The translations under genes were made by a program, and so were the position numbers. The notes beneath the pieces were generated by a model that had not been told where the DNA came from, made no database searches, and was given only the letters and a program-made list of their open reading frames with translations. From Candidatus Spongiisociaceae bacterium (lineage in GTDB: Bacteria > Actinomycetota > Acidimicrobiia > Spongiisociales > Spongiisociaceae), in the NCBI GenBank assembly GCA_965262915.1, contig OZ253564.1:2080001-2144000 (forward strand): 64,000 nucleotides of DNA, read 5' to 3'. Numbering within the stretch: position 1 is the stretch's first letter; each line of letters opens with the position of its first letter. Positions 9,834 to 37,501 of the stretch are shown here, in pieces.

Positions 9834-9952
9834 ACGGGTGCCCTCCTGACTGCGACCATGGACGTTTACTTCACCGCCCATAATCGCAGGTCAGAAGGGC
9901 ATTCCCGTGTCAAACCACCCACCCCCACCACCAACCCCATGAAGAATTGGGG

Positions 9953-10060
9953 CTAGGTGCTAGGTGCCAGTACTTGATGATCGTCAACAGCACCTGACAC
10001 CTGACACCTGACACCTGACACCTGACACCTGACACCTGGCACCTGGCTCCCGACACCTAA
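9953..10060. repeat. Heptamer-flanked element copy A, right part: AGGTGCY units, core hairpin, (CCTGACA)x6 plus 3 degenerate units
   Basis: 9955-9994 is identical over 40 bp to 13295-13334. Confidence 0.9.
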
Positions 10061-11448: not shown

Positions 11449-13131
11449 TCAGGCGTCGGTCACGCACCCTGTACTCGCCGACGACACGGTGCGGATGTAC
11501 TTGGCGAGAGTGCCGCGGGTGGCCTTGAGCGCAGGGGCCGTCCAAGCCTTGCGCCGCCCGGCCAGATCCGCATCCGTGATGTCGATGGTGACCGTCCGGG
11601 CAACCGCGTCGATCGAGATCCGATCGCCGTTCTCCACCAGTGCGATCGGACCGCCCTCCTGCGCCTCGGGGCTCACATGCCCCATGATGAAACCGTGCGA
11701 GCCGCCCGAGAACCGGCCATCGGTGATCAGGGCCACGTCTTGGCCCAGTCCGGCGCCCATGATCGCCGATGTCGGGGTCAGCATCTCGGGCATTCCCGGA
11801 CCCCCCTTGGGTCCCTCGTAGCGGATGATGATCACCGAACCCGGTCCGATCTTGTCCCGCTCCAACGCCGCCAGCATCTCCTCCTCGCTGTCGTAGGGCA
11901 GAGCCGTGCCGGTGAACGACAGGCCTTCCTTACCGGTGATCTTGGCCACCGCGCCGTCGGGCGCCAGGTTGCCCCGCAGGATCTGGAGATGGCCGGTGTC
12001 CTTGACAGGGGCATCCCAGGGGACGACCACCTGCTGGCCGTCCGCCAGCCCGGGTAGATCGGCCAGGTTCTCGGCCATGGTGCGCCCGGTGACGGTGAGA
12101 CAGTCGCCGTCGATGGCCCCCCGGTCGAGCAGCATCCGCAGCACCGCGGGGGTGCCGCCGACCGCGTGCAGATCCGCCATGACGTAGCGTCCGGACGGTT
12201 TGAGGTTCCCCAGGTAGGGTGTTCGGTCGCTGACCGCCTGGAAGTCCTCGATCTCCAGTTCCACCCCGACGGCGTGGGCCATGGCCAGCAGGTGCAGGAC
12301 CGCGTTGGTGGATCCCCCGAGAACCATCGTGATCGTCATGGAGTTCTCGAACGCTGCCCTGGTCATGATGTCGCGCGGCCGGACATCCCCTTCCATGAGC
12401 CTCCGGATGGCCGCCCCCGCCGCCAGGCACTCGGCGGTCTTGCCTTCGTCGACGGCCGGGGTGGAGGAGCTGTAGGGGAGCGACATGCCCAGCGCCTCTA
12501 TGGCTACGGCCATGGTGTTGGCCGTGTACATACCCCCGCACGCGCCCGCTCCGGGACAGGCGTTGCGGACGATGTCGAGGCGGTCCTCCTCGTCCATCCG
12601 TCCGGCGATGCGCTCCCCGTACGACTGGAAGGCGGAGACGATGTCGATGGGGTTGCCGTACCGGTCCGTCCCCGGCTGGATGGTGCCCCCGTAGATCATC
12701 AGCGAGGGCCTGTTGAGCCGGGCCATGGCCATGACCGCGCCAGGCATGTTCTTGTCGCATCCGGGGATCGAGATGTTGGCGTCGTACCACTGCGCGCTCA
12801 TGACGGTCTCGATCGAGTCAGCGATCAGGTCCCGCGACTGGAGCGAGAACGACATGCCTTCGGTGCCCATCGACATGCCGTCGGACACCCCTATCGTGTT
12901 GAAGCGCATACCCACCAGCCCGGCCCGGCCGACCCCTTCCTTCACCAGGGCCGCCAACTGATCGAGATGCATGTTGCAGCTGTTCCCCTCGTACCACATG
13001 GAGGCGATCCCCACCTGGGCCTTGGACATGTCGCCGGGTGTGAGGCCGGTGGCGTACAGCATCGCCTGGGATCCGCCCTGTGACCGCTCCTGGGTTATGC
13101 GTCTGCTGATGAGATTGATGGGTTGCGACAT
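11449..13131 (-). CDS. ilvD: Dihydroxy-acid dehydratase
   Basis: [37 protein letters not shown]. Confidence 0.96.
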
Positions 13132-13159
13132 GGGGCACATGATAGGTGGCTGGCGGATG

Positions 13160-13378
13160 GTGGTCCGTCGTCCGTTGTAACTCCTTCGGGTACCTATCTG
13201 CCGAGTTGGGTCTTCATCGCAAATAGTCCAGGTGTGGTAGCTGTTACCGGCACCTGACTCCTGACTCCTGACACCGAAACAGGTGCTAGGTGCGAGGTGC
13301 TAGGTGCCAGTACTTGATGATCGTCAACAGCACCCCGGCACCCGGCACCTGGCACCTGACGCCTGACACCTGACACCT
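13160..13378. repeat. Heptamer-flanked element copy B (tail continues at 14862-14872 after the IS110)
   Basis: Same core and CTGACAC/CTGGCAC arrays as copy A. Confidence 0.8.
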
Positions 13379-13384
13379 AATGGG

Positions 13385-13580
13385 GGTCCACCACTTCTGC
13401 CGGTTTGTCTGGGAGGGTGGTGGTTGAGCTGGCCGGCCGGTGAGTACTGGTGGCACCCGGAAGGCTGATTCCTAGTGTCAGATCGTACCCCGGCCGGTTC
13501 GTGAGGGCCGCTTGTAGCGCTCATGGGGTGGCGTGCCACAGAGCACTGATCCATTAGGTCGCCGCCAGGCGTTCTCTACA
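13385..13580 (+). ncRNA. Predicted IS110 bridge RNA
   Basis: 5' hairpin; target loop with TGGCACC (13451-13457) and GTGTCAG (13475-13481); donor loop with TGGGGTGGC (13524-13532) and CCATTAG (13551-13557). RNA ends are approximate. Confidence 0.8.
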
Positions 13581-13617
13581 GCTCGGCAAGGATCGATCCC
13601 CGTTGAAGGAGGAAGGG

Positions 13618-14839
13618 ATGATATTTGTGGGTAACGACTGGGCTGAGGGCCACCATGATGTGTATCTGCTGGACGAGGGTGGGACCCGGCTGGGGTTCGC
13701 CCGTCTCCCGGAAGGCCTGGCGGGTGTGGCCCGGTTCCACCAGATGGTCGCCGAGCACGCATCGGATGCGGCTGAGGTAGTGGTAGGCATCGAGACCGAT
13801 CGTGGTCTGTGGGTGGGTGCGCTGGTCGCGGCGGGCTATGTGGTGTATGCGATCAACCCTAGGGCTGTGTCCCGCTACCGGGACCGTCACAGCCTGGGCG
13901 GAGCTAAATCAGACCGCGGTGATGCCAAGGTGTTAGCTGATCTGGTACGCACCGACCGTCACAACCACCGTCCCGTGGCCGGTGACAGCCCCGAATCGGA
14001 AGGTATCAAGATCGTGGCCAGAACCCATCAGAACCTGATCTGGGCTCGGACTCGTCACACCAACCAGGTCCGCAACGCTCTGCGCGAGTACTATCCCGCA
14101 GCGCTGGAAACGTTCGCTGACCTGGCCCATTCCGACGCTGTGGCCGTACTGGGTCGGGCACCCACCCCCAGCATGGGCGCTCGCCTGACGTTGCCCCAGA
14201 TCCGAGCTGCGCTCAAAAGGGGCGGACGGCGACGCAACCTCGATCCGGTCGCCCGCCGTATCCAAGCGGGCCTCCGAGCTGCTCACCTCGCCGCACCGGG
14301 GCCGGTTGAGGACGCCTTCGGAGCGACTGTCGGGGCACTGGTGAGCATCATTGGGGAGGCCAACCGCCAGATCAGCCAACTCGAAGCAACCCTCCAGACC
14401 CGTTTTGAGCAGCACCCGGACGCCGTCATCTACCACTCCCAGCCAGGACTCGGTACTGTGCTCGGCGCCCGGGCGCTCGGTGAGTTCGGGGACGACCCCC
14501 ACCGTTACACCAGCGCCAAGTCTCGCAGGAACTACGCCGGAACGTCGCCCATCACCGTGGCGTCGGGCCGCAAACGTGCTGTCCTGGCCCGCCACGTCCG
14601 AAAAGCGGCGTCTCTACGACGCCTTGGACCAATGGGCGTTCTGTTCCCTAACCCCAAGCCCAGGAGCCCGAGCCTTCTACGACCAGAAACGAGCAGCCGG
14701 CGACCTCCACCACCAAGCACTCCGAGCCCTAGCCAACCGACTCGTCGGCATCCTCCACGGCTGCCTCAAACACCAAACCCCCCACAACGAACACACCGCC
14801 TGGGCACACCGAACCACCATCGACCGAGCCGCAGCTTGA
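13618..14839 (+). pseudogene. IS110 DEDD recombinase with a +1 frameshift at AAAA 14601-14604
   Basis: FVGNDWAEGHHD, GIET, KSDRGDA, YAGTSPITVASG; C-terminus RRLYDALDQWAF...RALANRLVGILH is in another frame. Confidence 0.85.
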
Positions 14840-14934
14840 CATTTACGCGCCTGGGGTGTCTGACACCTGACCACTGGCTACGCTGGCGGCATGCCCGACT
14901 TGACCGGTCCCCGCCCGCCCCCGGGTCGCGGGCG

Positions 14935-15693
14935 ATGTTGATCGTCAGTGACGTGCATGCCGCGTTTGCCGAACTGGCTGCGGTCGCCGCTTCGGGGGAG
15001 CCCCTCCTAGTGCTGGGGGATCTGCTGAACTTCGTCGACTACCGGACGGGCACCGGGATCGCCGCCGATGTATACGGCCACGAGCACGCCCTCGCGTTCA
15101 TACGGAACCGCAAGACCGGCGATTGGGAAGCCAACCGCCGCCTGTGGCGACGGACGATCGCCGGCCGCGCGGACGAACTGGCGGCCCGGACGCAGGAACG
15201 GGTGTTGCAACAGTATGCCGCGGCGCGGGAGGCGCTGGACGGCGCCGATGCCTACGTGACCTTCGGCAACGTCGACTGGCCGGACGAACTGGAGTCCGGG
15301 CTTTCGGGAGCGGCCCGCTTCGTCGACGGTGAGGTGATCGAGATCGAGGGTCATCGGGTGGGTTTCGCGGGAGGGGGTGTCCCCACACCTGCTGGGGCGC
15401 GCGGCGAGGTCCCGCACGAGGTGATGGCTGCCAAGCTGGAGGCGCTCGGTGAGGTGGACATACTCTGCACCCACGTCCCGCCCTCCGTTGCGCCCCTCCA
15501 CCGGGATGTCATAACGGGCGTCCTGGAACGTTCCTCCCCGGTGGTCCTGGACTACCTGCTCACCTACCGGCCGAGGTACCACTACTTTGGAGACATCCAT
15601 CAGCCCCAGGCCCACTCCTGGAGGGTGGGTGCGACGGTGTGCCGCAACGTGGGCTACTTCCGGGCCACGGCGCGGGCGGTGAGGCATTGCTGA
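14935..15693 (+). CDS. Metallophosphoesterase (calcineurin-like)
   Basis: SDVH, GDLLN, GNVD, THVPP, GDIH motifs. Confidence 0.85.
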   Translation: MLIVSDVHAAFAELAAVAASGEPLLVLGDLLNFVDYRTGTGIAADVYGHEHALAFIRNRKTGDWEANRRLWRRTIAGRADELAARTQERVLQQYAAAREALDGADAYVTFGNVDWPDELESGLSGAARFVDGEVIEIEGHRVGFAGGGVPTPAGARGEVPHEVMAAKLEALGEVDILCTHVPPSVAPLHRDVITGVLERSSPVVLDYLLTYRPRYHYFGDIHQPQAHSWRVGATVCRNVGYFRATARAVRHC

Positions 15694-37335: not shown

Positions 37336-37501
37336 GTTGTCGGTTGTCGGTTGTCGGTTGTCGGTTGTCGGTTGTCGGTTGTCGGTTGTCGGTTGTCCGT
37401 TGTCCGTTGTCCGTTGTCCGTTGTGACTCTTACGGGTATTCGGCTATGAGGTGACTCTTGCTAGCGAGGGCTAGGTGGGGTAGCCGTTGCCTGACACCTG
37501 A
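37336..37501. repeat. Heptamer-flanked element copy C: (GTTGTCG)x8 (GTTGTCC)x4, core, CCTGACACCTGA
   Basis: Tandem array read directly; core aligns to copies A and B. Confidence 0.88.

Follow-up and report, generated by a model that had tools for sequence, protein, structure and literature searches.

An IS110-group insertion sequence with a putative bridge RNA matched to heptamer tandem repeats in a Candidatus Spongiisociaceae genome

We describe a 1.48-kb IS110-type element in a 64,000-nucleotide stretch of DNA from a Candidatus Spongiisociaceae bacterium (the window; positions 2,080,001-2,144,000 of one 5.06-Mb contig whose G+C content is 64%), where it is located between ilvD (open reading frame, ORF, at 11449-13140 on the minus strand) and the next gene. 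Positions 13379-14859, counted from the first letter of the window and on the plus strand like all features below unless otherwise stated, very probably represent a copy of an insertion sequence (IS) of the IS110 group that encodes a recombinase of the DEDD/Ser type and has a left end of 239 nt specifying a bridge RNA aimed at heptamer tandem repeats. This reading is carried by the anatomy of the element, a conserved RNA structure, covariation between guides and insertion sites, an apparent empty site and a promoter motif at the junction of the joined ends. The mechanism is the published one of IS110 elements and IS621, which our findings leave unchanged, and not a new kind of system; the new part is the natural history, namely a microsatellite-like target and loop variants that track the variants of the repeat.

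Guides, insertion sites and RNA structure

The element body comprises 1481 bp (1483 bp including one CT), with ends that are common to the 11 near-full copies found in this genome. The left junction reads CTGACAC CTGACAC-CT, then AATGGGGGTCC, the element beginning at 13379, and the right junction reads CCTGGGGTGT, then CT-GACAC CTGACC, the last base of the element being 14859. A CT is present at both junctions in 11 of 11 copies, with no longer target duplication. The layout is that of a long left end of 239 nt (13379-13617) and a short right end of 20 nt (14840-14859), without long terminal inverted repeats. The left target is the final heptamer unit CTGACAC (13370-13376), followed by the left copy of the CT core (13377-13378); on the other side, the right copy of the core (14860-14861) is followed by the right target GACAC (14862-14866) and then by CTGACC (to 14872). 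The right donor AATGG is formed by the first bases of the left end (13379-13383), and the left donor TGGGGTGT is the right end of the element (14852-14859). All of the junction and loop strings given in a preliminary description of this DNA are present in the sequence.

Four guides in the putative bridge RNA correspond to these half-sites. On the 5' side of loop 1 (TGGTGGCACCC, 13448-13458), the left target guide U-GGCAC-C can read T-GACAC-C via one G:T wobble, and on the 3' side (TAGTGTCAGATC, 13473-13484, containing GUGUC, AG for the core and AU for the handshake) the right target guide GUGUC-AG can read CT-GACAC, of which GTGTCAG is the exact reverse complement. The 5' side of loop 2 (CATGGGGTGGC, 13522-13532) holds the left donor guide UGGGGUGG-C, which can read TGGGGTGT-C with 7 of 8 donor positions matching, and the right donor guide and core CCAUU-AG (13551-13557), the reverse complement of CT-AATGG, is followed by the donor-loop handshake positions GU (13558-13559). 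Handshake guides have been described as pairing with non-cognate DNA at positions 6-7 (PMC11208158), and by sequence this rule fits here in both loops: AU in the target loop could pair with T and G at donor positions 7 and 6, and GU in the donor loop with C and A at target positions 7 and 6.

The correspondence between loops and flanks extends to the other copies in the genome. All seven full copies with heptamer-type loops have left flanks resembling TG[A/G]CAC and a right flank identical to their own right guide at 5 of 5 positions. The right guide is GACAC in the window copy (L001) and in L002-L004, which have the right flank CT-GACAC, GGCAC in L006 and L007, which have CT-GGCAC, and AGCAC in L005, which has CT-AGCAC. 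A single left guide, UGGCAC, occurs next to TGACAC and TGGCAC left flanks alike, as expected from the idea put forward previously that its G could wobble to read both units, and we infer that this wobble is used; the left guide CGGCAC is unique to L004, whose adjoining left flank is CGACAC. Three remnants (L013/17, L016 and L024) also lie at heptamer junctions. The four copies with other loops are found at other sites: class B (L008-L010, three copies; left guide AGGCUCCU, right guide ATCAG) at AAGGCTC-CT-ATCA, and class C (L011, one copy; left guide AAUGCUCCU, right guide ATGTT) at GGATGCTC-CT-ATGG. The proposal that the loop is programmed against the heptamer is thus upheld by every copy of that loop family and by the remnants. 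On the donor side, the left donor guide covaries with the sequence of the right end (GGGGTG vs GGGATG).

To place these matches on a quantitative footing, the loops and both ends were parsed for 39 elements (42 of 91 recovered by strict anchors, less three without a recognisable right end). Matches to an element's own site averaged 5.29 of 7 positions on the left and 4.29 of 5 on the right, compared with 2.85 and 2.02 for the sites of other elements. When each of the 23 distinct guide pairs was represented once, 217 of 276 positions matched, against a permuted mean of 115.7, and none of 20,000 permutations scored as high; the guide-target covariation anticipated for homologues is therefore present. 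The genome provides a clear natural case of bridge-RNA reprogramming, with four target classes, in one of which three single-base guide variants are each found at the matching repeat variant.

The structure of the putative bridge RNA was derived from a consensus fold (RNAalifold) of 34 distinct left ends, nine belonging to this genome and 25 to others, the latter drawn from 80 loci in sponge-associated Acidimicrobiia metagenome-assembled genomes (MAGs), Rhodococcus, Mycobacterium, Nocardia and others. The consensus is a 5' stem-loop (13389-13422; helices 1 and 2, with compensatory changes in three of the six pairs of helix 1) and two modules, each of a stem, an internal loop and a hairpin. Module 1, the target-binding loop whose guides match the flanks (13428-13502; helices 3 and 4), has an outer stem, an internal loop of 11-12 nt and a GGAA..UUCC hairpin (GGAA..TTCC in the DNA, 13459-13472), and module 2, the donor-binding loop (13503-13576; helices 5-7), has a two-part outer stem, an internal loop and a GUGC..GCAC hairpin (GTGC..GCAC, 13533-13546). 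Four predicted pairs joining the two sides of the donor loop were removed and 47 pairs retained, and over these 97.7% of cells are paired, compared with 31-50% in slid controls; 13 of the 47 pairs show compensatory changes in which both sides are altered. None of 500 shuffles matched the observed alignment on four of five measures, and 52 of 500 matched it on 'further pair types'.

This consensus bears out the bridge-RNA architecture proposed in the preliminary description. The fold of 13379-13617 suggested there gave a divided result, as the open loops are recovered from the consensus of 34 sequences and not from the single sequence: the minimum-free-energy fold of the window copy alone shuts loop 1 by pairing its two sides. 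We dropped the single-sequence fold as evidence for the architecture and used the consensus fold instead. A scan of 12800-15400 against Rfam 15 (E <= 10) found no family on the left end, although Rfam may contain no bridge-RNA model.

Heptamer arrays as targets

The genome contains about 100 period-7 arrays of at least three units, with CTGGCAC (39 arrays) and CTGACAC (17) as the most frequent units. Exact matches to three units number 205 in this genome, compared with 4, 5 and 8 in three congeners; the remaining 37 relatives searched have none, although many of these genomes are fragmented MAGs, and a reversed-pattern control gave 0. Sites fitting the right guides number 88 for GACAC, 211 for GGCAC and 7 for AGCAC. 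The pattern TGRCAC-CT-[A/G][A/G]CAC is matched 309 times in 66 clusters, where base composition predicts fewer than one match per pattern and strand, which agrees with the earlier suggestion that the arrays offer many overlapping targets: given a periodic target, about n-1 sites are available in an array of n units. The heptamer-type right-guide segment occurs at seven places in this genome (G000) and in none of the 28 further genomes searched from the family, a result that does not establish absence, as many of them are fragmented MAGs; the heptamer-type target loop had 0 matches in two metagenome scans, and elements in five congeners have loops of other classes.

Within the window, the target arrays belong to a composite element in which a 22-bp core (TACTTGATGATCGTCAACAGCA) separates inverted heptamers (GGTGCTAG/GGTGCCAG) from direct heptamers. 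This composite is present in five good copies in the genome, could form a long hairpin and may be REP-like or MITE-like. One of the two copies in the window (9940-10058) is empty and the other holds the IS110 element. The latter forms the left flank at 13253-13376, with (CCTGACT)3 at 13253-13272, inverted heptamers at 13281-13310, the core at 13311-13332 and direct heptamers at 13334-13376. In the empty copy, an unoccupied array of six CTGACAC units and then one CTGGCAC (9994-10042) offers the same target; the six empty units reported earlier are real, and their coordinates are 9994-10035, one base off the 9993-10034 originally given.

A further clean array in the window, GTTGTCG x 12.7 with 98% matches (37336-37424), has a unit that none of the target loops found here matches.

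Recombinase, joined ends and alternative explanations

The recombinase ORF of the window copy is divided into two parts. The first (13618-14605) covers the DEDD domain and the beginning of the Tnp domain, catalytic-Ser motif included (PF01548, partial PF02371), and the second (14606-14839) continues in the +1 frame to the stop TGA at 14837-14839. PF01548 (DEDD_Tnp_IS110, the N-terminal RuvC-like domain) is matched with E 1.3e-33, as it is in the paralogue P0001 (E 2.3e-33). The match to PF02371 (Transposase_20) is truncated, covering model positions 6-55 of 87, and the C-terminal Tnp domain is not encoded in one intact frame in the window copy, owing to a +1 frameshift at 14602-14605; paralogue L003 does encode it, with PF02371 matched over positions 6-86 of 87 and including Ser316. 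This serine, in a VASGRK motif, aligns to the IS621 position taken as the catalytic S241, which was placed by the numbering in PMC11208158 with an assumed chain offset of two residues. With the NCBIfam model NF033542 ('IS110 family RNA-guided transposase'), the intact paralogue P0001 scores 181.7 bits, where the cut-off is 140, and the sole PDB match of the intact paralogue is the IS621 structure 8wt6 (E 1.3e-7). Judged by these sequence matches, the element is a member of the IS110 group with a predicted IS621-type bridge RNA, and the window copy is a defective member.

The 11 near-full copies are pairwise 81-99% identical and are accompanied by about a dozen fragments. Intact ORFs of 406-407 residues are found in six copies (L003, L006, L007, L008, L009 and L010), whereas L001, L002, L004, L005 and L011 have the same extra base at one A-run (CCGAAAAGCGG vs CCGTAACCGG) across sub-lineages; in L005 the frame is reopened by a +2 insertion 120 nt upstream, with about 40 residues, including the VASGRK Ser motif, misframed. 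Three copies from three sub-lineages (L004, L010 and L011) carry a variant donor loop (GAGGGGGUGGC / CUGCUAG), half of which is also present in L009 and which occurs in none of 31 parsed homologues. The patchy distribution of this variant, of the frameshift and of a 2-base indel suggests recombination (gene conversion) among the copies. In a manual base-by-base reading, the variant guide CUGCU could form two Watson-Crick pairs, two wobbles and one mismatch with AATGG, and CUGCU-AG pairs perfectly, by Watson-Crick pairing, with CT-AGCA, the heptamer side of the right junction of L005. A donor search for the variant loop returned this L005 right junction with one mismatch. In a reading that we consider doubtful, the variant loop would be part-way to adopting a repeat junction as its donor. 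The same search returned one exact 14-mer, within a broken IstB-like gene (genome position 5001866), which we judged to be a chance match (rough expectation of about 0.1).

When the two ends of the element are joined in silico, they give TTGACA-17 nt-TCTAAT, with 11 of 12 matches to the promoter consensus. The -35 hexamer TTGACA lies at 14836-14841 and the -10 hexamer TCTAAT is composed of T14859, the CT core and the AAT of 13379-13381, such that the promoter is complete only across the circle junction; no promoter-like site was found in the integrated state across 13200-15000. We also compared the contigs of four public runs with 12900-15400. In X2 and X4, which are from two studies, one contig each joins 13376 to 14860, skipping 1483 bases with two letters shared, and this joint looks like a precise empty site, CTGACAC-CT-GACAC, which we regard as supporting evidence and not as proof. 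In the main X2 and X4 contigs, 34 other letters stand between 13132 and 14875 in place of 13133-14874; the commonest allele there is therefore without the composite repeat and the element, and the repeat element is itself an insertion/deletion difference between strains. A joint in X1 that goes back by 1534 fits another copy, then an array. In the RNA run X19, contigs are few and fall on the ORF end and the arrays, with 13404-14411 uncovered.

By analogy with IS621, we infer that the bridge RNA is transcribed and guides catalysis, and propose the following cycle. The element would be excised as a circle, in which the joined ends would form the strong promoter TTGACA-17-TCTAAT and drive expression of the bridge RNA and the recombinase. 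The junction TGGGGTGT-CT-AATGG would be paired by the donor loop, and two successive heptamer units by the target loop, of which the 5' side UGGCAC-C would read the bottom strand of TG[A/G]CAC-C and the 3' side GUGUC-AG the top strand of CT-GACAC. Strand exchange would occur at the CT that opens every unit. The window copy is non-autonomous because of its +1 frameshift, which lies after the catalytic Ser, and would be mobile only with the recombinase of intact paralogues such as L003, L006 and L007.

Several observations weigh against a heptamer-directed bridge RNA as described here, or against its function in the window copy. In the window copy, the 5' stem-loop is two bases (GT) short compared with the other 10 copies, and the frameshift already noted in the preliminary description is confirmed as one extra base at the A-run 14602-14605 relative to intact paralogues. 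Fold predictions for the free RNA have the target loop pairing with itself, with about 5.9 expected pairs, at the top of 33 folded elements, self-pairing that is expected because a direct tandem repeat as target makes the two target guides mutually complementary. The left guide reads CC against the CT core and leaves the second core base unpaired, unlike in IS621, which strongly favours pairing at both core bases (PMC11208160); among 42 elements, 23 have U as the guide base facing the second core position, 9 have C, 8 have G and 2 have A. The contigs with the empty-site joint have shorter sides of 31 and 45 letters, the left side is repeat and the joint is flagged 'between: not known', and no junction of right end to left end, as expected of a circle, was present in the contigs of the four runs over 12900-15400. 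Lastly, insertion positions within the arrays are uneven, with L006 occupying the last of 22 sites and L003 the 6th of 7. Further edge cases are L004 at the first of 4, which is accounted for by its own left guide, and another copy at the 2nd of 2; these are suggestive of insertion at array edges, but the cases are too few.

The alternative that survives best, though we consider it unlikely, is that the heptamer-targeting lineage is now inactive, the matches between loops and flanks record past events and the bridge RNA of the window copy is without function. Decay of this kind would fit the same +1 frameshift in five of 11 copies, the L005 open frame that is out of register over the catalytic-Ser motif, the several remnants and the restriction of the heptamer-type loop to this genome among the family genomes and metagenome scans covered. 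It is opposed by the intact state of L003, L006 and L007, by the 99% identity of L006 and L007 at different sites and by the shared frameshift of L001 and L002, which also lie at different sites and thus point to movement or conversion after the frameshift arose; in addition, other populations have the apparent empty site.

We think it very improbable that the arrays were made or lengthened by the element, for example by imprecise recombination, and were not pre-existing targets. A 22-unit array of 159 bp that adjoins L006 (genome positions 372874-373032) is among the three longest in the genome (the others being 158 and 155 bp), and the insertions at array edges would also be explained in this way, but only about 10 of the 66 site clusters hold an element or remnant, many arrays use units that no loop matches (CCGACAC, CCGGCAA, GTTGTCG) and the congeners G001, G002 and G007 possess a few arrays while lacking a heptamer-type loop in the search made. 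Least credible is a choice of site by protein or DNA structure (e.g., a hairpin of the inverted arrays) with incidental loop complementarity: a target-encoded stem-loop has been described as a second specificity layer for ISPpu10 (10.64898/2026.03.19.712850), and the insertions L001 and L007 lie immediately 3' to the composite's 22-bp core, but single-base guide variants track single-base flank variants in one genome, the signal persists over 23 guide pairs and inverted arrays are missing from the 90 bases examined to the left of L003.

Accepting a bridge RNA directed at heptamers, the coupling of recombinase and repeat element proposed in the preliminary description stands as target choice and goes no further. 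A closer relationship, in which the element and the heptamer microsatellite family co-evolve and the recombinase acts on the arrays themselves, seems doubtful to us; it would draw on the single-base steps of the right guide from AGCUC in a congener to AGCAC, GGCAC and GACAC, which appear to follow unit variants. If it were true, the 66 places, with arrays in both orientations, would form a web of RNA-addressable sites at which recombination could delete, invert or grow arrays. A short tandem target would imply many overlapping registers per array, guides able to pair with each other and one guide position that accepts A or G, features that are relevant to the degree of self-structure and wobble compatible with a bridge RNA and are useful for guide design. 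The intact paralogues may also be added to the candidate recombinases as an actinobacterial-type enzyme from sponge-associated Acidimicrobiia.

Relation to known systems and minor observations

IS621 of Escherichia coli, a member of the IS110 group, is the reference bridge-RNA recombinase (PMC11208160, PMC11208158). As described in those sources, it shares with the present element a DEDD and Ser recombinase, a long left end with a 5' stem-loop, target loop and donor loop (PMC11208160), a CT core with handshake positions (PMC11208160, PMC11208158), a -35 box in the right end with a promoter that is completed at the junction and lost on junction truncation (PMC11208160), and an intergenic repeat as target, which for IS621 is REP (repetitive extragenic palindromic) DNA. 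The proteins, in contrast, are distant, as the E value of the structural match above indicates, and the target here is a direct tandem 7-mer whereas that of IS621 is the palindromic REP; the tandem target makes the target guides mutually complementary and the sites in each array overlapping.

Closer relatives are found in sponge-associated Acidimicrobiia (Ca. Spongiisociaceae and others; L026-L044 and L106-L131), whose proteins are 72-83% identical (mostly 81-83%) over the full 406 residues and whose RNA scaffold and donor ends are nearly identical to those described here. Their loops differ, reading ..CACCCTC-CT-AGCCC/AGATC, AAGGCTC-CT-ATCA and GGATGCTC-CT-ATGTT. The nearest element, in the congener G002, has the left guide of L005 and a right guide, AGCUC, that is one base from the AGCAC of L005, but the sites it occupies lack heptamer arrays.

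Elements of the IS110 family typically insert in a site-specific manner into intergenic repeats. ISPpu9 and ISPpu10 of Pseudomonas putida are likewise IS110-family elements inserted at many copies of one intergenic repeat, which is REP for ISPpu9 and a conserved intergenic sequence with a 5' stem-loop for ISPpu10 (10.64898/2026.03.19.712850); they differ in belonging to another phylum and having other targets, and no short tandem repeat is described in the accounts consulted. IS4321/IS5075 of the IS1111 group, also within the IS110 family, insert with high site specificity into repeated sequences, the Tn21 inverted repeats (PMC11208160). Elements of the IS1111 group combine a long right end and a short left end with long subterminal inverted repeats, and differ in this from the present element with its IS110-group layout. 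A 2026 preprint reports tandem repeat units of at least 50 bp accumulating beside IS110 elements, which differs from the present case. In the literature searched, we found no paper linking IS110 elements to microsatellite or heptamer tandem targets, although the target tables of Durrant et al. may list some, and a literature search on 'Spongiisocius' returned no paper.

The right junction itself has an additional symmetry, as 14853-14868 form an imperfect palindrome, GGTGTC-T-GACACC, and reverse-complementing the GTGTC within the element's own right end gives the right target GACAC; this may be a coincidence or a hint at the origin of the heptamer specificity.

Among the fragments, L012, L020, L021 and L025 (genome positions 1035322, 4518974, 2945852 and 4967433) are remnants of a fourth sub-lineage and target class, inserted in a repeat of about 70 nt with, at its end, a terminator-like hairpin and then ...TTCTCAGCAC[T/C]CTC-CT, and congeners have intact elements at this type of site. 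The flanks of L008 and L009 (4420448 and 3638542) are identical over at least 90 bp on each side, these copies lying within a duplicated segment or another repeated element, and the flanks of L010 are a diverged version of the same sequence. L014 (4018493-4018709) is a solo left end, a complete class C bridge-RNA gene that is not followed by a recombinase gene, and its left guide agrees with the flank on that side.

The only real Rfam match in 12800-15400 is to Ms_AS-4 ('Actinobacteria sRNA'), which lies antisense within the recombinase ORF at 14439-14520 on the minus strand (84.8 bits, gathering score 50). At this locus, the Ms_AS-4 family matches a conserved stretch of the IS110-family gene on the opposite strand.

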